Made by a program: the position numbers and the translations under genes. Shown piece after piece: positions 7,985 to 24,542 of a stretch of DNA of 31,156 bases (the stretch's first letter is position 1; each line of letters begins with the position of its first letter). This DNA is from a virus (taxonomy: Duplodnaviria; Heunggongvirae; Uroviricota; Caudoviricetes). The notes beneath the pieces are model-generated. The model was not told the origin of the DNA and searched no databases. It worked only from the letters and a program-made list of their open reading frames with translations. Location of the stretch: positions 1-31,156 of the IMG/VR virus record IMGVR_UViG_2778261417_000015; one strand, 5' to 3'.

Positions 7985-8740
7985 TCAGCTATGAAATCTA
8001 TATGCCCTAGACTGGCTTACCAGAACTTTCGCGCAGATACGGAGAGATGAAAAATCACCGTCCTCGATATACCAGGTCTCATATTTTTTATTGTCAGAAA
8101 TCACTGCTAATTTTTTGTGCTGTTTTTGTAGCCGTTTGATATAGAGATCATTGTCCAGAACGAAAATATAAATGCCGTCACCGTCAAAACAGTCGATGCT
8201 GATGTCGACGAATATCTGGTCGCGGGGCTCGAACGTGCCTGACATCGAATCGCCATTAACAGCAATCATTTTTATATGGTCTGCAGGGCGCCCACCAAAG
8301 ACAGCATGAGCCTCTTCGGTCGAATACTCTATGGATCTAATAGTCTCAATAAATTCATCTCGCACAAGAATTCCTTGCCCAGCACTAGCCTGAATATCAA
8401 AAACGTCTACTCGAAAAGAATCATCCCTCACTGCCATATGCCCTTCGGATATGCCATCTGCTCCACTATCGCCTAAAAGGTAAGACGAAGATGTGCCAAT
8501 TATAGCCGCCAATTCCTGCAGCTTCCCACGTCTCGGAATGGATTCCCCATTGAACCACTTGCTTACCGCTTTCGGCGTTAGCTTCATTCGTTTGGCTATT
8601 TCAGCCTGACGACCATGAGCAGGTAAACCAGCTTTATCACAGGCCAGCGCTAGCCGTTGGGAGAATTCAGTACGCGCTTTTTCTTCTTGAACCATAGGTT
8701 CAATCATAATATCACTTGCGTGAACTATCAGTTCCGACAT
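7985..8740 (-). CDS. cI: CI-type prophage repressor (HTH_XRE plus S24 LexA-like peptidase domain), 251 aa
   Basis: N-terminal HTH (QAEIAKRMKLTPKAVSKWFNGESIP) and C-terminal S24 autopeptidase motifs (AVNGDSMSGTF ... LYIKRL). Divergent from the cro-like gene. Start may be internal or leaderless. Confidence 0.85.
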   Translation of the reverse strand: MSELIVHASDIMIEPMVQEEKARTEFSQRLALACDKAGLPAHGRQAEIAKRMKLTPKAVSKWFNGESIPRRGKLQELAAIIGTSSSYLLGDSGADGISEGHMAVRDDSFRVDVFDIQASAGQGILVRDEFIETIRSIEYSTEEAHAVFGGRPADHIKMIAVNGDSMSGTFEPRDQIFVDISIDCFDGDGIYIFVLDNDLYIKRLQKQHKKLAVISDNKKYETWYIEDGDFSSLRICAKVLVSQSRAYRFHS

Positions 8741-9112: not shown

Positions 9113-9655
9113 ATGCAATCACTTACGTATCAACAGAGTACCGGAATACACAGCAGCGTGATGATAAATCGCGCTCAACCGGAACCGGACAATAACCATG
9201 AGTTGATCCGCGCGGCGGTTCGCGCCTGGTCAGCTGCTATCGACAATCAGGACGTGGTATGCGCGCTGATTATCAACGAGTACCGGGAGCAGGGCGGCAC
9301 AGCGATCAACTTTCCGGAAGATGTGAGCCGGGCCAGGCAGAAGTTATTTCGTTTTCTCGATAACCGGTTCGACTCCGATCAGTACCGCGAGAACGTTCGC
9401 GAGCTGACGCCAGCGATTATGGCTGTCCTGCCGCTTGAATACCGTACGCGGCTGCTTCCACAGAACGACACGATGTCTTTGATTGCTTCTGCAATGAAAG
9501 AGTGTGCTGAGGCTAAGCAGGCGGTACTCCTTGGCGCGCCAGAGCATCAGAAATTGAAGGAGGTAAGCGAAGGTATAGCGTCGCTGTTCCGACTCATGCC
9601 TGAACAGGTAGGCCCGCTGATGACGATGGTCACTTCGATGCTGGGAGTTATGTGA
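9113..9655 (+). CDS. YdaT-like protein in the cII position (180 aa)
   Basis: Intact ORF directly after the nut-like site. The N-terminal segment resembles recalled YdaT-family proteins found after cro-like genes. Functional assignment is tentative. Confidence 0.45.
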   Translation: MQSLTYQQSTGIHSSVMINRAQPEPDNNHELIRAAVRAWSAAIDNQDVVCALIINEYREQGGTAINFPEDVSRARQKLFRFLDNRFDSDQYRENVRELTPAIMAVLPLEYRTRLLPQNDTMSLIASAMKECAEAKQAVLLGAPEHQKLKEVSEGIASLFRLMPEQVGPLMTMVTSMLGVM

Positions 9656-9745: not shown

Positions 9746-9891
9746 TGGCAAAAAATCCACGCTATTACCATACCGCTGTACATAAAAACATAACCCGCGA
9801 CCGCTTCATCCGCTCGGTTAACCCGATTGTGGCAGAGAAGATGCGCGCCATCCTGGAAGAACTGAAACGTAAGGAGAGTGGCCGTGGGTAA
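9746..9891 (+). CDS. Small basic hypothetical protein (48 aa)
   Basis: Strong AGGAGG RBS 5 nt before the ATG at 9746. The longer track ORF starting at 9652 lacks an RBS. Confidence 0.4.
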
Positions 9892-10762
9892 CGTATCCAA
9901 TTTAGCCGAAGCCAGAGAGGCCAGAAGGCTCCAGAAACCGCGCACGAATGACGGTAAGGGGTTTGCCTTGCTGCACCGTAAAATTATGGATGTGCCGTTC
10001 TACAAGGACGCTGAGGCGGCTCATTTATGGGTTCACATGCTCCTGCGTGCTAATCACGAACAGACACTGGTATCTACTGATGTTGGCGATGTGATCTGCG
10101 AGCGCGGAGAGTTCATCACCGGGCGAAACACACTGGCAATGGAAACGGGTTTGACCGCTGATCGCGTTAAATCCCTTCTCCGTAAATTCCAGAATCTGGG
10201 CATGATCACCACCAAATCGAACAACCGTTTTACTGTTCTAAAAGTGGTCAAATATGACGAATATCAGTCAAATTTTTGTCCAGCAGATGTCCAGCCAGCG
10301 TCCAGCCCAAACATAGTCGTACCAATGCCTGCGGAGGTGGAGTGTCCAGCCGATGTCCAGCCAGTGTCCACAGATAACAATATATTAAATAACTTACTAC
10401 CTAACGGTAGTAAGTATGTCGCAAATGACCAGAAACCCGCTGAAGAGAAAAAGTCTCGTTTGTCATGCGATGAAGTATGGCAATGCCTGAAAGACGAACT
10501 GCCTGAAGCACGGGGATGGAGATGCCTCACTGATGAGCGACGCAATCTGATCCGCACATTCTGGGGTAAGGCTAATAAGATTGCCCGCAACCTGGACGGC
10601 AAGCCGATGGATATGGACGGTTTCAGAAGCTATCTGCGTTACATCGCTCAGAACTGCCGCTGGATGCTTGAAGACCGACCAGACCAGAAGTCTGGGAAGA
10701 CCTGGCGCCGTATGAAATTCGATAAGTTCCTGACCGAAAAGCTCTACATCGAAGTGCGCTAG
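9878..10762 (+). CDS. Replication initiator (lambda O-like) with internal origin, 294 aa
   Basis: Winged-helix-like N-terminal domain, iterons embedded in mid-gene, immediately upstream of the DnaB-type helicase. Confidence 0.6.
   Translation: MAVGNVSNLAEAREARRLQKPRTNDGKGFALLHRKIMDVPFYKDAEAAHLWVHMLLRANHEQTLVSTDVGDVICERGEFITGRNTLAMETGLTADRVKSLLRKFQNLGMITTKSNNRFTVLKVVKYDEYQSNFCPADVQPASSPNIVVPMPAEVECPADVQPVSTDNNILNNLLPNGSKYVANDQKPAEEKKSRLSCDEVWQCLKDELPEARGWRCLTDERRNLIRTFWGKANKIARNLDGKPMDMDGFRSYLRYIAQNCRWMLEDRPDQKSGKTWRRMKFDKFLTEKLYIEVR
10277..10373. repeat. Origin iterons, followed by an AT-rich stretch
   Basis: Six copies of a TGTCCAGCC-type unit in two clusters (10277-10308 and 10342-10373), followed by AT-rich ATAACAATATATTAAATAA. 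Encoded as a repeated PADVQP peptide. Confidence 0.6.
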
Positions 10763-10772
10763 GGGGATCGTG

Positions 10773-12206
10773 ATGACCGCTGATTTCATGGCTGTACCAC
10801 AAAACCTCGAAGCAGAGCAGAGCGTTATCGGTGGCCTGCTGCTGGATGATGACAACAGCGAGCGAGTCCAGAAGGTTCTGGCGATGCTCAAGCCTGAATC
10901 GTTCTACAGCCGACCTCACCAGCTGATCTTTGCCGAGATGCGCCAGATGTTCCGCGACAACAAGCCAGTCGATGGTCTGACATTGTTCGACGCGCTCGAA
11001 GGCAAAGGGCTCGCGGAGCAGGTAGGTGGCTTTGCTTACCTGGCGGAGATCGCCAAGAACACTCCCAGCGCTGCAAACATCGTGGCATACGCTGCGTCAG
11101 TCCGGGAAGCCGCAATGGAGCGCTACGGTATCAGCCGCCTGACCGAAGCTACTGAGCTGCTGTATTCCCGCAATGGCATGAGCGCCACGCAGAAGTACGA
11201 GGCCATTCAGGGTATTTTCACCCAGCTCGCAGACCATTCAAAAACCGGTAGTCGCCGTGGGTTGCGGTCGTTCGGCGAGGTTATGGATGACTGGGTAGCA
11301 GATCTGGAGAAACGCTTTGACCCTTCAGGCGAACAGCGCGGCATGAGCACCGGCATCCCGTCACTCGACCGGCTGCTGGCGCCGAAAGGTCTGGTTAAAG
11401 GCTCTCTGTTCGTGATTGGCGCAAGGCCAAAGATGGGCAAGACAACCCTGTACGGTCAGATGGCGATCAACTGCGCGGTTCGTGAGAAAAAGCCAGCGCT
11501 GATGTTCAGCCTCGAAATGCCGGGCGACCAGATCCTCGAAAAACTGGTTGGTCAGAAGTCTGGAGTTAACCCGAGCATTTTTTACATGCCAGCCACGGAT
11601 GACGCCGATGACCAGTACCAGGGCGATTACGACGGCGACTTTAAGAAGGCGATCGCCACCGCCGGGCGATTGAGTGAAATCGACATGCTGTACATCGACG
11701 ATACTCCTGGCCTGTCACTGGCGCACATCGTTAGCGAAAGCCGCCGAATCAAGCGCGAGAAGGGCTGCGTAGGAATGATTCTGGTTGACTACCTGACTCT
11801 AATGACCGCCGAAAAAGCCGACCGTAATGACCTGGCCTACGGGATGATCACCAAAGGTCTGAAGAATCTCGCCAAAGAGCTTGGCTGCGTCGTCGTGCTG
11901 CTGACCCAGCTCAACCGCGAACTGGAGAAGCGAGTGAATAAACGCCCGTTGCCGAGCGATTCCCGCGACACAGGGCAGATTGAGCAGGACTGCGACTACT
12001 GGGTTGGTATCCACCGGGAAGGTGCTTTCGATGACAGCGTGCCGCCGGAAGAAACCGAGTTAATACTGCGACTCAACCGCCACGGCAGTACCGGAACGGT
12101 TTATTGCAATCAGAACAACGGGGCAATTTACGACACAGACCAGCAGGCCGCCGCCGCAGAACGCCGCGGGCGTGAGCAGCAGCCGAAAAAGAAAGGGGGG
12201 TTCTGA
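10773..12206 (+). CDS. Replicative DNA helicase, DnaB family (about 477 aa)
   Basis: DnaB N-terminal domain (LEAEQSVIGGLLLD) and RecA-like ATPase core with Walker A (GARPKMGKTT). ATG at 10773 follows an AGGGGG RBS. Confidence 0.85.
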   Translation: MTADFMAVPQNLEAEQSVIGGLLLDDDNSERVQKVLAMLKPESFYSRPHQLIFAEMRQMFRDNKPVDGLTLFDALEGKGLAEQVGGFAYLAEIAKNTPSAANIVAYAASVREAAMERYGISRLTEATELLYSRNGMSATQKYEAIQGIFTQLADHSKTGSRRGLRSFGEVMDDWVADLEKRFDPSGEQRGMSTGIPSLDRLLAPKGLVKGSLFVIGARPKMGKTTLYGQMAINCAVREKKPALMFSLEMPGDQILEKLVGQKSGVNPSIFYMPATDDADDQYQGDYDGDFKKAIATAGRLSEIDMLYIDDTPGLSLAHIVSESRRIKREKGCVGMILVDYLTLMTAEKADRNDLAYGMITKGLKNLAKELGCVVVLLTQLNRELEKRVNKRPLPSDSRDTGQIEQDCDYWVGIHREGAFDDSVPPEETELILRLNRHGSTGTVYCNQNNGAIYDTDQQAAAAERRGREQQPKKKGGF

Positions 12207-12550
12207 TGACCATAACAATTCGTGGGCAGATTCTTGCAGCCCTGCGTAATAACCCGGGCCTGAATAGTGCTTTCATTGCCAGGATGATCGGCATGACCAC
12301 CAAAAAGATTTCCGGCCCGTTAAGTACGTTGTTTGCAGACGGCCTGATCGAGTTCGAAGGCAAGCACGGACAGCGGCTTTATCGGCTGACCGATTACGGC
12401 ATGAAATACGCACCAGAAACAATCCCGGCTATGCCGAAGGGAAATTCGAAGCTGGTGCAGCGTACAGAGGCAAACGTGATCTGCCAGGAGTGCCGGAAAA
12501 GTCCGGCTATGAAGCGAGTATTGATGGTTTGGGGGAGGGTAGGGGTATGA
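12206..12550 (+). CDS. ren: Ren-like protein (114 aa)
   Basis: The C-terminus (CQECRKSPAMKRVLMVWG) and central segment resemble recalled lambda Ren. Located directly after the helicase gene with a TGATGA overlap. Confidence 0.5.
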   Translation: MTITIRGQILAALRNNPGLNSAFIARMIGMTTKKISGPLSTLFADGLIEFEGKHGQRLYRLTDYGMKYAPETIPAMPKGNSKLVQRTEANVICQECRKSPAMKRVLMVWGRVGV

Positions 12551-12849
12551 AACAGAAATTTATTGATGGGATTGATATGGATAATATCAGCTACACACCG
12601 GCGATCACCACGGATGGAACATATGATCATCAGAAAAACTGCAAATGTTCGAGGAGTACCAAGCCAGAGTGGCTGAAGGTAAAGCCAGATGATTGGTTAT
12701 GGCTATTGAAAACGCGGGAATGGACGTGTTCTTTGATACCTTATTATCTCTCGTCTTGCAAGGGGAACCCGCTTCTGCTGACATTTGCATTGGTGGTGTT
12801 AAGCTCGTTATCAGAGCGGGTCAGTAGAACCAGCAAGCTAAGGCACTGA
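12547..12849 (+). CDS. Hypothetical ORF with uncertain reading frame, possibly degraded
   Basis: ATG at 12547 has a GGGAGGG RBS, but the 3' half translates to implausible sequence while a shifted frame (12699..12827) gives a more protein-like 42-aa peptide. Confidence 0.3.
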   Translation: MKQKFIDGIDMDNISYTPAITTDGTYDHQKNCKCSRSTKPEWLKVKPDDWLWLLKTREWTCSLIPYYLSSCKGNPLLLTFALVVLSSLSERVSRTSKLRH

Positions 12850-12868
12850 TAGACTATGATTTTTATGC

Positions 12869-13621
12869 TTAGTCATGTTTAAATCCTGGATTCCCTATAG
12901 AATTTGCCTCGAAGGATTTTTGAATCTGATAGTGCTCAATTTCCTGTTTAATGTTAGTGATTTCATCTTTAAGTTTTTCATTATCTGCGTAGGCTTGCGC
13001 TAAATCCTTCTCTAGATCAAGAATTTTATTGTTTTGCTCTTTAACCATTTTATCCGAGTGAATCGCCTGTTCGCTAAAGCGTGTTGATGATTCCTTCAGG
13101 GCTGTTTGTGCTTTAAGTAGCTCTTCTAATTCCAGCTTGAGTTTATCCCGTTCTGCAGTAATCTCACCCATCCTCTCCTGAGATTTCACAATACTTTCAC
13201 GCATTTCTTGTATTTCTTTCTCTGCCCCAGCCTTGAATCGATTATATGTAACGTCCCGTTTTGCCCTATATCTCTCCACACTGATATCAGCAACTAACGC
13301 CTTCTTGCGTCGAATCGCCATCAATACTGAGGTTCGTGAAATAGGCTTAGACTGCAAAGCAGTAAATTTCTCGTTGATGATTGGCAAAGCAATTGCCAAA
13401 AGTATAGCAATTAGAAGAGGAAGCAGAAAAATAATTGGATATGTATTGCTTATAAAGGTCAGCCTTGATTCGATTTTCATTTCACTGAAAAGCAAAACAG
13501 CCACAGCCTTCCAATTGCATGCAAACCAAGACAAGATAAAGACACCATAGAAAGGGCTTTTGAATCGCTCTGTAGATGTTTTTTGAACTGAAAAGTAAAT
13601 TTCTTTTATTGATTCCCACAT
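12869..13621 (-). CDS. Membrane protein: two predicted transmembrane helices plus long coiled coil (250 aa), opposite strand
   Basis: Hydrophobic segments (FYGVFILSWFACNWKAVAVLLF; YPIIFLLPLLIAILLAIALPII) followed by heptad-rich charged sequence. Strongly AT-rich. Orientation opposes flanking phage genes. Confidence 0.6.
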   Translation of the reverse strand: MWESIKEIYFSVQKTSTERFKSPFYGVFILSWFACNWKAVAVLLFSEMKIESRLTFISNTYPIIFLLPLLIAILLAIALPIINEKFTALQSKPISRTSVLMAIRRKKALVADISVERYRAKRDVTYNRFKAGAEKEIQEMRESIVKSQERMGEITAERDKLKLELEELLKAQTALKESSTRFSEQAIHSDKMVKEQNNKILDLEKDLAQAYADNEKLKDEITNIKQEIEHYQIQKSFEANSIGNPGFKHD

Positions 13622-13790
13622 ATCGCATGAGCCATGTCAGAAGTAAACTATGTCAATCATACCCAACAGGGGATGCCATAACTATAATAAAACACTAAAA
13701 AACGGCAAAGAAGTAGAAAAATACTACGCCCTACAGGTGAAGCTGAGTTGGTTGGCGATAATTGTGGCGGCACCAAAGGTAAGAACGAAG

Positions 13791-13809
13791 AAGGGGCAAC
13801 CCCTTTTAT
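13791..13809 (+). terminator. Possible short terminator-like hairpin
   Basis: AAGGGG-CAA-CCCCTT followed by TTAT, inside the intergenic region of the accessory island. Confidence 0.3.
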
Positions 13810-13964
13810 GGGGGTGGGATTCGACCATGCGACCACTTTTCTGGTAAGCGCAGTATCAATGCGCCGCTTTCGGCCGCTCAGCCATCCCGCAATGTTTGGA
13901 ATTGATAAAATTTATCTAATACCGTTAAGTGGACGCCAATTATCCATTTTTATTAGGTGGTAAT

Positions 13965-14213
13965 ATGTCTGACTGGAACATATCTGCAAAGCCGCAGGAA
14001 GAGCGCGACAAGGTTAACGTTGACCTTGCGGCCTCTGGTGTTGCATACAAAGAGCGCCTGAACATGCCGGTTATCGCTGAAGTGGTGATGCGTGAGCAAC
14101 CCGAGCATCTTCGTGATTACTTTCTTGAGCGTTTGCGTCATTATCGAGAAGTAAGCATCAGCCTTCCTAGGGCTGGCAACCCCCGCTACATCAAGAATGA
14201 AGAGGTAAAATAG
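13965..14213 (+). CDS. Hypothetical protein (82 aa)
   Basis: ATG at 13965 is preceded by AGGTGG. Its stop is 1 nt before the next gene start. Confidence 0.5.
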
Positions 14214-14214
14214 C

Positions 14215-14700
14215 ATGACTTCTGAGGCATGGAGCGCCGTAGCAGGCGTTGCATCAGCTATAGCAGCTTCCGTGAGCCTTATCATCACATGGAGAGGGCT
14301 AATCTATCAAAAGGCTTCACTAATCGAGTCAAGGCGAAGAAATATCCAAGACTTACTTAGTTATCAAGCAGAAAGGGCAAATTCATCATGCAGTGGAAAA
14401 ACAAGTTCAGACTGGTCGTTCTCTGAATTTGCAAACATTATGTTCGCTATCGATACTGCGAGAAACATGGTCGCACGGATAAAAGATAGCGATGGCATTA
14501 GCAAGGAAGAGGCTGGAAAATATTTTTTAGATTTACTCAACCAGCATATCGTAGCCACGTTCAAGCACGGCAGCCCTCCAGACGGGGCTTTTAAAAATAA
14601 AGGCTCAATCCCTGAGAGCCTTGAGGTTATTCAGTTGTGGAACCCTAACGCTCATTTTCTGGGTTTTACAGATGTGGATTTTGGCATAAGTAAACTTTGA
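14215..14700 (+). CDS. Membrane-anchored hypothetical protein (161 aa)
   Basis: N-terminal hydrophobic helix (AWSAVAGVASAIAASVSLIITW) then a soluble domain. AT-rich and coupled to the upstream 82-aa gene. Confidence 0.55.
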   Translation: MTSEAWSAVAGVASAIAASVSLIITWRGLIYQKASLIESRRRNIQDLLSYQAERANSSCSGKTSSDWSFSEFANIMFAIDTARNMVARIKDSDGISKEEAGKYFLDLLNQHIVATFKHGSPPDGAFKNKGSIPESLEVIQLWNPNAHFLGFTDVDFGISKL

Positions 14701-14880: not shown

Positions 14881-15330
14881 GTGAAGCAACAATACTGTCT
14901 CGTTAACGACAACGTGAAACGCAACGTCGTCGCCTTAATCCAGTCGCTCCCGGTCAATCCCCGTGCTCCGATGGTAATCGAAGCACGAGAAGAAACTCGC
15001 ACCGACAAGCAAAACCGCATGATGTGGCCATTACTCAAAGACCTGTCTGACCAGGTTGTCTGGCACGGCGAGAAGCTGACACGTGAGGAATGGAAGGACC
15101 TCATCACCGTTCTGGTTAATCAGACTCATGACCAGCAGCAGAAGTCCGCACCGGGCATCAACGGTGGTCGTGTTTATTTCGGCGTCCGCACATCCAAATC
15201 CAGCAAACGCTACATGGTCGATGTCATAGAGGCGATTTACTGGTTCGGTACCGACCGCGGCGTGAAATTCTCCGAAGCATCCAGTGCTCGAATCTCCTGG
15301 GCGCAGGAGTGGAGGGCATCCCATGCATAA
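14881..15330 (+). CDS. ninB: NinB (Orf) recombination mediator (149 aa)
   Basis: Matches the recalled lambda NinB pattern (DKQNRMMW ... VVWHGEKLTREEWK ... GTDRGVKFSE). GGAGG RBS before the GTG start. Confidence 0.8.
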   Translation: MKQQYCLVNDNVKRNVVALIQSLPVNPRAPMVIEAREETRTDKQNRMMWPLLKDLSDQVVWHGEKLTREEWKDLITVLVNQTHDQQQKSAPGINGGRVYFGVRTSKSSKRYMVDVIEAIYWFGTDRGVKFSEASSARISWAQEWRASHA

Positions 15331-16798: not shown

Positions 16799-16851
16799 TT
16801 CATGTAAATCTGATATCGTCGCCATAGCTTCGGTAGTCGACAAACATTAAG

Positions 16852-16880
16852 AGCCTCGCCATCGTGCGGGGCTTTTTTAT
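16852..16880 (+). terminator. Rho-independent terminator (tR'-like)
   Basis: GCCTCGC-CATCGT-GCGGGGC (7-bp stem with one G-U pair) followed by TTTTTTATTT. Confidence 0.6.
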
Positions 16881-17278: not shown

Positions 17279-17602
17279 GTGATCATGGCAAAACGTATGA
17301 ATGACGACCACAAAATTGTAGGCCTGTCCTGGCTAATCCTGCTCGGCATTGCATGCTGGGGCGGTTTAGTACGCTACCTCATTGACGTAAAGCAGAATAA
17401 AGCCACATGGAGCTGGATAAACGCTCTGGCACAGATCGCCGTCTCCGGCTTTACCGGGCTGATCGGCGGATTGATAAGCGTGGAGAGCGGCCTGAGTTTT
17501 CACATGATTCTGGTTACCTCAGGCATTAGCGGGGCTATGGGCTCCGTGGCTCTGACTTATTTCTGGGAACGACTGACGGGGATGAAGAATGCAAACCAGT
17601 GA
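17279..17602 (+). CDS. Holin (107 aa), possible dual-start motif
   Basis: Hydrophobic segments typical of holins and position directly upstream of the endolysin. N-terminus M-I-M-A-K-R-M offers alternative starts. Confidence 0.7.
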   Translation: MIMAKRMNDDHKIVGLSWLILLGIACWGGLVRYLIDVKQNKATWSWINALAQIAVSGFTGLIGGLISVESGLSFHMILVTSGISGAMGSVALTYFWERLTGMKNANQ

Positions 17603-18038
17603 TAAAGGCATTGCTCTGATCAAGCAGTTCGAAGGCTGCAAGCTTACGGCTTATCCCGATCCTGGCACAGGTGGCGCGCCTTGGACAATTGGCTATGGAT
17701 GGACACAGCCTGTCGATGGAAAACTAGTGCGACCAGGAATGACGATTGACCAGGCAACAGCTGACCGCTTGTTAAAGACCGGGCTGGTGAGTTACGAAAA
17801 TGACGTCTCGCGACTGGTGAAGGTAAAACTGAGTCAGGGCCAGTTCGATGCGCTGGTGTCATTCACGTACAACCTGGGTTTCCGATCGCTGTCGACATCA
17901 ACACTGTTGAGCAAGCTTAATGCCGGTGATTATGCTGGCGCTGCCGACGAATTCCCGCGCTGGAATAAGGCTGGCGGCAAAGTACTTAATGGGCTGACAC
18001 GTCGGCGTGAGGCGGAGCGCGCTCTGTTCCTGTCGTGA
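17589..18038 (+). CDS. Endolysin, GH24 phage lysozyme (149 aa)
   Basis: T4/P22-type lysozyme motifs (FEGCKLTAYPDP ... WTIGYG). Overlaps the holin 3' end. Confidence 0.85.
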   Translation: MQTSDKGIALIKQFEGCKLTAYPDPGTGGAPWTIGYGWTQPVDGKLVRPGMTIDQATADRLLKTGLVSYENDVSRLVKVKLSQGQFDALVSFTYNLGFRSLSTSTLLSKLNAGDYAGAADEFPRWNKAGGKVLNGLTRRREAERALFLS

Positions 18039-18511
18039 TTTACGCGTTCGTAAAGCGCTACTGGCTGCAGTTGATGGTGATTGCGGTAATCTGCGTACTG
18101 GCGTTTTTCGTGAACTACTACCGCGACAACGCCATCACCTATAAAGACCAGCGCGATAAAGCTCAATCACTTGCAGAGCAGCAGCAGGACACCATTAACG
18201 ACATGCAGGTACGCCAGCGCGACGTTGCTGCACTGGATACCAAATACCTAAAGGAACTGGCAGATGCCAAAGCTCAGAACGATGCTCTTCAGCGCAAGCT
18301 TGATAATGGTGGTCGGGTGCTCGTCAAAGGCCGATGTCCAGTGCCAACCTCAACCGAAACCGCCAGCGCCTCCAGCATGGGCCATGATGCCACCGTCGAA
18401 CTCTCTGACGTTGCTGGACGAAACGTTCTCGGTATCCGAATCGGGATCAAGAAAGACCAGTCAGCCTTGATGGTGCTGCAGGAGTACATCAACACGCAGT
18501 GCCTTAAGTAA
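18035..18511 (+). CDS. Rz: Rz i-spanin (158 aa)
   Basis: N-terminal transmembrane helix, coiled-coil periplasmic domain, GTG start overlapping the endolysin stop, and an embedded Rz1 ORF. Confidence 0.7.
   Translation: MIYAFVKRYWLQLMVIAVICVLAFFVNYYRDNAITYKDQRDKAQSLAEQQQDTINDMQVRQRDVAALDTKYLKELADAKAQNDALQRKLDNGGRVLVKGRCPVPTSTETASASSMGHDATVELSDVAGRNVLGIRIGIKKDQSALMVLQEYINTQCLK
18264..18470 (+). CDS. Rz1: Rz1 o-spanin lipoprotein, embedded in Rz in another frame (68 aa)
   Basis: Signal peptide with lipobox (LIMVVGC) and a proline-rich mature region, entirely inside Rz in a different frame. Confidence 0.65.
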   Translation: MPKLRTMLFSASLIMVVGCSSKADVQCQPQPKPPAPPAWAMMPPSNSLTLLDETFSVSESGSRKTSQP

Positions 18512-19320: not shown

Positions 19321-19539
19321 TTAGACCTTCTTATATGAGATAGATCGTCCAAATGGGGGATATGTAGAAGTTGAATCTTTAATTTCATAAGTAGCTACAA
19401 CATTTCCCGCAGCGTCTAACTCACGATAAAGATATTCGTCTGTATCCTGGCCTTTTCGGGCTCCTTTCCAGTTAGAAGAGACAAGCTCTAAGGTGTGATC
19501 GTCTGGGATACCGATTTTCTGTTTGTATTCATCACTCAT
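19321..19539 (-). CDS. Hypothetical small protein on the opposite strand (72 aa)
   Basis: Intact AT-rich ORF convergent with the upstream genes and divergent from the terminase small subunit gene. Confidence 0.5.
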   Translation of the reverse strand: MSDEYKQKIGIPDDHTLELVSSNWKGARKGQDTDEYLYRELDAAGNVVATYEIKDSTSTYPPFGRSISYKKV

Positions 19540-24026: not shown

Positions 24027-24542
24027 ATGAGCAGTGTAACTGCGGCAGAAGTAGGTTCTTTTTTGCTATCTCTGGTTGTGCCTGTTATCACAGGTGTTGT
24101 TGCGGCAGGATTCACAGCATATTTTGCCCTAACAAGATTCTACAGAGAGAAATGGTGGGAGAAAAAACATGCCGCTTATAACCAGTTGATAGAAAAACTT
24201 TTTGAACTTAAAGACCTATACATCATTGCATCAGATATTACGGAGATGGAATTCGAAGCTCATAGAGGCGAACGAGACCCTCCAAAAGCTAAGGTTGATT
24301 GGCATAAGCTGAATGAAGTGAGATCTCAGGTTCACAGACTTTATGTCCTATCACCTATCTCCTTCAGTGGTAATGTCAGAGAGTTATTGGACAATCTTCT
24401 TACTCAAGATACTGAAAAAAATATCAGCATCTATGAAGAGGGATATCTTGAATTTATTGCTTATCACGAAATGTCAGGCGTAATACAGTCATCCATTGAT
24501 GCAATAGTCGCAGATGCAAAGGAAGAGCTTAAGTTCAAATAA
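24027..24542 (+). CDS. Membrane-anchored unknown protein (171 aa): moron inside the head module
   Basis: AT-rich ORF with AGGTGAG RBS, N-terminal transmembrane helix (FLLSLVVPVITGVVAAGFTAYFAL), and its own terminator downstream. Confidence 0.55.
   Translation: MSSVTAAEVGSFLLSLVVPVITGVVAAGFTAYFALTRFYREKWWEKKHAAYNQLIEKLFELKDLYIIASDITEMEFEAHRGERDPPKAKVDWHKLNEVRSQVHRLYVLSPISFSGNVRELLDNLLTQDTEKNISIYEEGYLEFIAYHEMSGVIQSSIDAIVADAKEELKFK

Follow-up and report, generated by a model that had tools for sequence, protein, structure and literature searches.

The window analysed here, the whole 31,156-nucleotide (nt) stretch of the IMG/VR record IMGVR_UViG_2778261417_000015, is a lambdoid prophage, and the gene under study occupies positions 12869–13621 on its minus strand, antisense to the pR-type operon between a ren-like gene and the nin genes. 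This antisense gene is a real, conserved gene that appears, from its base composition and the comparison of loci, to be a horizontally mobile moron, and its product, predicted to be an inner-membrane protein with two transmembrane (TM) helices followed by a long coiled coil, may be a candidate anti-phage factor. The open reading frame (ORF) starts with ATG, ends with TAA, and encodes 250 amino acids (aa), and its coordinates and strand were exactly those assigned in an earlier note made from the letters of the window alone. In the gene calls for the identical prophage in NCBI assemblies, all genes from cro to the lysis genes except this one lie on the other strand, bearing out the claim of that note that the gene opposes the early-right operon. 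One further opposite-strand call of 72 aa, at 19321–19539 (minus strand) between the lysis genes and the small-terminase gene, had no family match. The exact protein is present on seven contigs in NCBI assemblies by exact-protein look-up, and the N-terminal domain of its homologues shows ratios of nonsynonymous to synonymous divergence (ω) of 0.02–0.12; the gene is thus not a chance reading frame.

Protein family and its two modules

The earlier note recognised no specific family for the product, which had to be corrected: the protein matches PHROG 4780 (E = 4.3e-38, residues 1–225 against positions 1–216 of a profile of 275), which carries no function annotation, together with the related PHROGs 13369 and 35327 of unknown function, and belongs to a larger family, defined by a two-TM (2TM) domain, that is absent from Pfam. 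The 2TM-domain family is much broader than PHROG 4780, reaching Vibrio, Flavobacterium, plasmids, and an inovirus. With a word-indexed search the relatives numbered only 25, all belonging to Enterobacter, Pantoea, or Lelliottia and the best of them with 63% identity, and in their alignment residues 1–150 are conserved while the remainder varies in sequence and length. A profile of residues 1–152, searched against 1.84 billion cluster representatives, matched 2461 proteins at E ≤ 1e-3. Of these, 362 reached E ≤ 1e-10; all of them have the domain N-terminally, and they come from Enterobacterales, from Vibrio, and from Flavobacterium. Among the top 150 profile matches, nearly every protein is 150–390 aa long with an N-terminal domain, the others being a few short fragments and one protein of 514 aa. 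Named members come from Cronobacter, Klebsiella, Raoultella, Pantoea, and Flavobacterium, further members are found in a Vibrio filamentous prophage and on Klebsiella plasmids, and one family allele is present in 25 of 5426 complete E. coli genomes. The contexts of the family loci discussed below were drawn from exact-protein look-ups and IMG/VR; a profile search of genome contigs with alignment A2 yielded no confirmed relatives.

Scans of the protein with Pfam, NCBIfam, and PADLOC returned sub-threshold coiled-coil matches only. The matches to JetC, LmuB, and PbeC (PADLOC, E ≥ 1e-3) and to KASH_CCD, SMC, and Rad50 (Pfam/NCBIfam) were confined to residues of about 105–240 and lay far under the cut-offs, and were set aside as noise from coiled-coil composition. 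Outside the coiled coil, PADLOC and Pfam gave no match to known TM-containing defence effectors (SLATT, CBASS/Pycsar 2TM, Rst, PD-T4/T7/lambda, and PDC), and residues 1–100 of the protein and of 104 diverse members matched nothing in Pfam. A sequence-profile search of the PDB found no related solved structure, and Foldseek comparisons of the full model with BFVD and the PDB, and of the N-domain model with the PDB, gave nothing at E < 0.1. NaK chains headed the Foldseek list, and the order of elements in NaK/K+ channel subunits is like that in the N-domain model, but the scores are meaningless (E > 4, TM-score 0.2, root-mean-square deviation 11 Å), and a 2TM P-loop cation channel of the KcsA/NaK type was rejected; a TxGYG-like motif, as in the selectivity filter of NaK/K+ channels, is absent from the sequence. 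A literature search on the family, the PHROG identifier, and the protein accessions found nothing. The protein is outside any characterised family and part of a large, unannotated family on mobile elements.

The sequence has hydrophobic segments at residues 24–45 and 61–82, with Kyte–Doolittle 19-residue peaks at residues 27–45 (1.83) and 63–82 (3.08). AlphaFold2 was run on the full protein with 26 homologues (mean predicted local distance difference test score, pLDDT, 79.7) and on residues 1–98 with 35 diverse homologues (pLDDT 82.9). Helices 2–19, 23–35, 37–45, 50–60, and 66–90 are common to both models, and helices 23–35 and 37–45 together form one kinked TM segment. The Kyte–Doolittle peaks, together with helices 23–35/37–45 and 66–90, bore out the two TM helices proposed in the earlier note. 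TM1 (residues 24–45; 13487–13552, minus strand) is kinked at N36–W37, and TM2 (residues 61–82) is encoded at 13376–13441 on the same strand. Both belong to an N-terminal conserved module (residues 1–155; 13157–13621, minus strand; alignments A1, A2, A3, and A6) that consists of an amphipathic helix (2–19), TM1, a short loop helix (50–60), TM2, and a basic juxtamembrane helix, with 13 lysine or arginine residues in positions 83–130. Across the 104 members, N36 and W37 in the middle of TM1 are invariant, R19, P23, G26, S46, P68, and P80 are at least 90% conserved, and column conservation peaks at residues 21–40 and falls steadily toward the C-terminus. Because conservation is concentrated there, the membrane module is the defining, functional part of the family and not a mere anchor.

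Averaged over the 104 members, net charge is +1.5 ahead of TM1 and −0.6 in the loop of 15 residues, and it rises to +2.5 over the 25 residues that follow TM2; under the positive-inside rule, this predicts cytoplasmic termini and a cytoplasmic coiled coil. The product is thus most likely an inner-membrane protein with predicted cytoplasmic N and C ends. The full AlphaFold2 model adds an unbroken helix of 147 residues (96–242), with pLDDT above 90 from about residue 131 to 220. About a third of its residues are hydrophobic, and their periodicity at 3.5 residues has a power of 1.33, against 0.24 ± 0.24 in 5000 shuffles, a fraction of 0.005 of which reached the observed value, with no peak at 3.6 residues. 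The significant heptad periodicity and the share of hydrophobic residues speak for a coiled coil and against a single charged helix, and the long cytoplasmic helix most likely oligomerises in this form. The coiled coil of the earlier note is thus predicted, with a length somewhat greater than the roughly 130 aa given there.

The C-terminal part of the protein is a variable coiled-coil module (residues 156–250; 12872–13156, minus strand) that is exchanged among relatives by recombination. Pairs that are 99–100% identical over residues 1–155 are only 38–70% identical afterwards; proteins P0004 and P0010, for example, share 100% identity over residues 1–155 and 52% beyond. At the DNA level, identity in the N- and C-modules was 95.7% and 64.7%, respectively, for loci L022 and L026, and 91.6% and 60.1%, respectively, for L007 and L013. 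Nei–Gojobori estimates gave ω of 0.02–0.12 in the N-module and 0.2–0.7 in the C-module. The synonymous divergence (dS) of the two modules of one pair differs 3–8 fold, as in L022/L026 (0.22 in the N-module vs. 1.76 in the C-module); in L015/L016 the difference is reversed (0.56 vs. 0.06). The dS discontinuity between the modules is the mark of recombination that has reassorted old C-terminal alleles onto an N-module under constraint. Positive selection on the C-terminus found no support: ω stayed under 1 for all pairs, and the jump in dS points to recombination.

In at least 14 distant members, the C-terminus is formed by a small domain with the pattern ‘...GLI...Y.LT..G..F’, a tip that the product of the antisense gene lacks; the winged-helix matches of these tips (HTH_34, HTH_45, and EarA) were sub-threshold only (E 0.006–0.1). 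In a Cronobacter Uetakevirus-like prophage (L036), one slot holds two tandem family paralogues with different C-termini (5083–5964 and 6001–6807), the upstream of which matched the N-domain profile with an hhalign E-value of 6.5e-21.

An AT-rich mobile cassette and its candidate expression signals

The G+C (GC) content of the antisense gene is 0.38, against 0.53 in its flanks; in a GC profile it is the most AT-rich stretch of the early-right region (0.38–0.41 vs. 0.53–0.59), and gene GC was below that of the flanks at all 30 family loci compared (0.32–0.39 vs. 0.41–0.56). The phages HK639, HK225, and mEp237 have the ren-like flank and E. coli prophages the theta flank, all of them without the gene. 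Family loci occupy at least six different insertion contexts, and relatives have the antisense placement in five temperate-phage backbones. According to annotated or called gene maps, both immediate neighbours lie on the opposite strand in three lambdoid prophages (the window, KO-TP1, and an E. ludwigii prophage), in Uetakevirus-like phages, where the slot is between the large terminase and portal genes, in the integrase-proximal early (early-left) region of Enterobacter prophages, and in SSU5-like phage-plasmids.

The source of the cassette is suggested by its edges. The closest relative, with 63% identity including the C-terminus, is in the Uetakevirus-like TerL/portal slot, and DNA similarity between the window and that locus extends from about 45 nt before the ATG to about 60 nt past the stop codon, the 3′ extension being the end of the terminase gene in the Uetakevirus-like phage. 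In the window, what remains at this 3′ cassette edge is the C-terminus of a large terminase of Uetakevirus type, preserved as a frameshifted fossil (12760–12872, plus strand). The fossil abuts the stop codon of the antisense gene and comprises two collinear terminase matches, KGNPLLLTFALVVLSSLS (12760–12813) and QQAKALIDYDFYA (12831–12869), followed by TAG (to 12872). A 51-aa terminase fossil (E = 6e-21) lies in the equivalent position in the lambdoid phage KO-TP1, and the window's own terminase is unrelated to the Uetakevirus-type terminase of the fossil. Since the 3′ end of the terminase gene came along as a fossil, the cassette reached the lambdoid ren/nin slot from a Uetakevirus-type genome; a corresponding remnant of the portal-side neighbour in Uetakevirus was looked for upstream of the gene and not found. 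The 100-aa ‘gene’ called at 12547–12849 (plus strand) in NCBI assemblies has no family match, and its 3′ part is the terminase fossil. The view that the antisense gene is a horizontally mobile moron, an AT-rich cassette inserted antisense in a lambdoid prophage, is thus well supported by the compared loci.

A candidate −10 hexamer, TATGAT (13656–13661, minus strand), starts 40 nt before the ATG at a position conserved in relatives: of 28 loci with unrelated contexts, 13, this one included, have a −10 hexamer scoring at least 5/6 that begins 36–40 nt ahead of the start codon. This phylogenetic footprint, with the AT-rich mobile unit, makes a promoter of the gene's own probable, as the earlier note had proposed. 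The gene may also be expressed in a lysogen. A second promoter-like site (TTGCCG, a 16-nt spacer, and TATAGT; 13681–13708, minus strand) matches 9 of 12 positions. In many relatives, the strand of the gene itself carries a strong hairpin with a T-run a short way upstream of the promoter; the corresponding weak hairpin with a T-rich tail in the window (13791–13805, minus strand) was not accepted as a terminator because it was not significant (z = 0.87).

Other features of the start region were observed as well. A short reading frame in another phase (13622–13635, minus strand; MAHAICGNQ-stop) opens with an ATG 14 nt upstream of the main start codon, which it overlaps. The Enterobacter relatives L007, L009, and L013 also have an out-of-frame ATG 14 nt upstream, preceded by AGGAG in L007 and L013. 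In nine relatives (L008, L017–L020, L022, L023, L026, and L027), the motif AAGACTATTC(C/T)TAAC is situated just upstream of the −10 hexamer, about 40–55 nt before the start, and is conserved above its surroundings; it is absent from the copy in the window. This motif could be a candidate binding site for a regulator.

Possible anti-phage role and competing explanations

The genomic contexts of relatives bear on the function of the antisense gene. The 514-aa Pantoea relative (E = 3e-20 to the N-domain profile) occupies the slot flanked by gpA and the portal gene in a P2-like prophage, and the gpA/portal locus of P2 is a hotspot of anti-phage systems in which old and tin reside (Rousset et al., PMC9122126). 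In Flavobacterium stagni, PDC-M43A/B (E = 8e-68 and 3e-131), ShosT/ShosA, and a PD-DExK protein come directly after the relative. Copies in Enterobacter prophages adjoin PRTase-CE and NADAR genes (weak matches to retron III-A PRTase and PDC-M42C models), and the copy in the Vibrio inovirus comes after a DUF2726 gene. Since these defence contexts combine with a constrained membrane module and a swappable distal part, we tentatively favour, with a confidence somewhat short of even, the reading that the antisense gene encodes a candidate single-protein anti-phage factor expressed from the prophage, in which abortive infection carries about two parts and an early block of entry one part of the weight.

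Considering these contexts, we propose the following scenario. The conserved membrane module would be the effector, perturbing or gating the inner membrane and leading to abortive infection or an early block, and the recombinationally swapped C-terminal part may set which invader is recognised. As the gene is antisense to the early operon, or to the late operon in other phages, self-shut-off by antisense transcription is possible, and read-through from pR (or from late transcription in other phages) during the phage's own lytic growth could turn the gene down.

Several points weigh against an anti-phage role. The loci in defence contexts are a handful picked by hand and not a systematic enrichment test, PADLOC models match the protein only as coiled-coil noise, and all named members are annotated ‘hypothetical protein’. 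The topology call rests on simple charge counts only. Furthermore, the ω of 0.2–0.7 in the C-terminal module fits plain relaxed constraint on a coiled coil, and coiled coils diverge fast even in the absence of an arms race. For expression, promoter-like sites in the region were not above shuffled expectation in a consensus scan, there is no Shine–Dalgarno sequence before the ATG, and no terminator-like site was found between the stop codon and position 12438; AT-rich foreign genes are, moreover, often silenced by H-NS in enterobacteria.

The nearest functional analogues of the proposed role are SieB, AbiP/PdpSau, and SieA/gp15/Imm. SieB of phages lambda and P22, a superinfection-exclusion protein of the abortive-infection type, acts from the prophage. 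It is a similarly small membrane protein: two hydrophobic helices at the N-terminus lead into a basic juxtamembrane stretch, and the C-terminal part is cytoplasmic. Its gene is similarly antisense inside an early operon (pL, N) and abuts a convergent neighbour (sieB/N), but it has no long coiled coil. Homology to SieB was not detected by hhalign (probability 0.3% for the N-domain and the C-tips), and the Pfam SieB model is absent in the protein and the 104 members. A resemblance by eye between the lambda SieB C-terminus and the winged-helix-like tips was dismissed, although hhalign aligned that stretch, on a probability of 0.3% (E = 0.18). Homology to lambda RexB was likewise not found (hhalign probability 0.2%).

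Lactococcal AbiP and staphylococcal PdpSau are likewise single abortive-infection proteins borne on prophages or plasmids, anchored in the membrane at the N-terminus and carrying a cytoplasmic domain of positive charge. They differ in having one TM helix and an OB-fold domain rather than the 2TM plus coiled-coil layout, and no sequence relation was found. PdpSau alters membrane potential and permeability on infection (PMC10127798). P22 SieA, HK97 gp15, and T4 Imm are phage- or prophage-encoded inner-membrane blockers of DNA injection, of which gp15 is a classic moron (cited in PMC10883804); none has a long coiled coil, and gp15 and Imm are likened here by description, not by sequence. ZorA of Zorya is similar conceptually only, in its combination of a membrane module with a very long cytoplasmic helical tail. 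It is a MotA-like, multi-TM protein that works with ZorB/C/D and uses its tail in defence signalling, whereas the antisense gene stands alone and its product has no match to the PADLOC Zor models. The product is plausible, and more so in view of its genomic contexts, as a candidate prophage-encoded membrane exclusion or abortive-infection factor.

One competing explanation is superinfection exclusion without cell death, in which the protein, in the manner of P22 SieA, HK97 gp15, or T4 Imm, would block genome entry or an immediate-early step of incoming phages. Acting from the cytoplasmic side, it could engage either the injection conduit or the end of the incoming DNA. The predicted inner-membrane location and the prophage moron status accord with it, as do the members on conjugative plasmids and a filamentous phage, which fit a general entry-exclusion role, and the winged-helix-like C-tip of some relatives could bind nucleic acid. 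However, this assignment is sub-threshold and concerns a tip that the protein itself lacks, and just about 15 residues are predicted to be periplasmic. SieA has three TM helices in 162 aa and a cytoplasmic FxRYPxEAxxFNK motif (PMC10883804), whereas the product of the antisense gene has two hydrophobic segments, no homology to SieA, and no such motif. We regard this explanation as unlikely.

Equally doubtful is an accessory role unconnected with defence, in which a membrane-tethered coiled coil alters the envelope or division (by an EzrA-like or Kil-like logic) or acts as an addiction or toxin module that stabilises the mobile element. Many scaffold proteins share the generic architecture of a membrane anchor with a coiled coil in the cytoplasm, mobile elements of many kinds, plasmids among them, carry the family, defence models give no match, and one plasmid copy lies beside a TacAT-type toxin–antitoxin pair. 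Members are nevertheless found in two or more slots known for defence systems, either candidates or validated by experiment, conservation of the membrane module goes far beyond the needs of an anchor, and the loci examined show no conserved adjacent antitoxin partner. The plasmid copy in question (L041, 4998–5306 of Klebsiella plasmid pFF1076_1) is a 102-aa N-terminal remnant of a family member cut by IS1 that adjoins a DUF1778/GNAT pair, and like remnants occur on many Klebsiella conjugative plasmids.

A lytic function of the phage itself, in lysis timing (holin/antiholin-like) or as a scaffold at the membrane for assembly or replication, is very unlikely. Class II holins share the predicted 2TM layout with both ends inside, and the gene is between the terminase and portal genes in Uetakevirus-like phages; yet wherever it sits within a lytic operon it runs antisense to it, close relatives of the same phages lack it, and some members are found outside phages altogether. 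Holin, endolysin, and spanin genes are already present in the phage, and no holin or spanin family matched. The earlier note had named homology to a structural or lysis protein as evidence against its proposal; none was found, and a complete, separate lysis cassette is present. A decaying or spurious ORF without function, to which the missing Shine–Dalgarno sequence, the AT-rich foreign DNA, and the plasmid copy truncated by IS1 might point, is effectively refuted by the conservation pattern, namely the low N-domain ω across many pairs, an intact gene at every phage locus examined, and the 362 relatives found by profile.

The surrounding prophage and the meaning of the family

The remainder of the window follows the lambdoid layout. 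Early-left genes on the minus strand, among them a RecT-like gene (3740–4669), and then a cI-like repressor gene (7985–8740, minus strand) precede a cII-like gene (9113–9655), an O-like gene (9878–10762), and genes for a DnaB-type helicase (10770–12206) and a Ren-like winged-helix protein (12206–12550). On the other side of the antisense gene lie a homologue of DNA polymerase III theta (13929–14213, E = 9e-34) and, directly 3′ of it within 13929–14700 (plus strand), a gene for a 161-aa protein of phrog_1779 with unknown function, both of them between the moron and ninB. The NinB gene (14881–15330) is followed by NinG and Q, then by holin, lysozyme, and Rz-like genes at about 17279–18511, with terminase and head genes beyond. 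A match to the Rfam family isrJ, an Hfq-binding small RNA, was found just downstream of the Q antiterminator gene (16803–16875, plus strand; 69.9 bits, E = 4e-11).

Two further ORFs stand out by composition. Directly downstream of the cI-like repressor gene, an AT-rich patch (GC about 0.41) holds a 195-aa orphan ORF (7386–7973, minus strand) in the slot that rexAB occupies in lambda; it has no match in Pfam, PHROG, or PADLOC and may be a second, putative accessory gene expressed in the lysogen. Within the head-gene module, a 171-aa ORF (24027–24542, plus strand) lies in a sharp AT-rich island (GC 0.40 vs. about 0.56); it matches nothing in Pfam or PADLOC and looks like another moron.

For annotation, the results mean that the 100-aa ‘gene’ beside the antisense gene is partly a pseudogene remnant. 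The terminase fossil in it provides a clean example of a moron that crosses unrelated phage backbones carrying a piece of its former neighbour. If the product is anti-phage, it would represent a very compact single-gene membrane system missed by defence catalogues, for which PADLOC, Pfam, and NCBIfam hold no models, and alleles with identical membrane modules and different C-terminal cassettes, such as P0004 and P0010, could map specificity directly. Beyond this, we can imagine, as a speculative and rather improbable extension, that the N-module is a new, widespread minimal membrane effector, with a cytoplasmic coiled-coil stalk that oligomerises and gates it and exchangeable tips, either plain coiled coil or winged-helix-like, that serve as plug-in sensors for different invaders, making up a modular single-gene immune receptor–effector. 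The interfacial helix, the kinked TM1 with its N–W pair, the loop helix, and TM2 would then form a channel-like device gated by the stalk. Were this so, one family would serve tailed and filamentous phages, plasmids, and chromosomal defence islands in at least two bacterial phyla.

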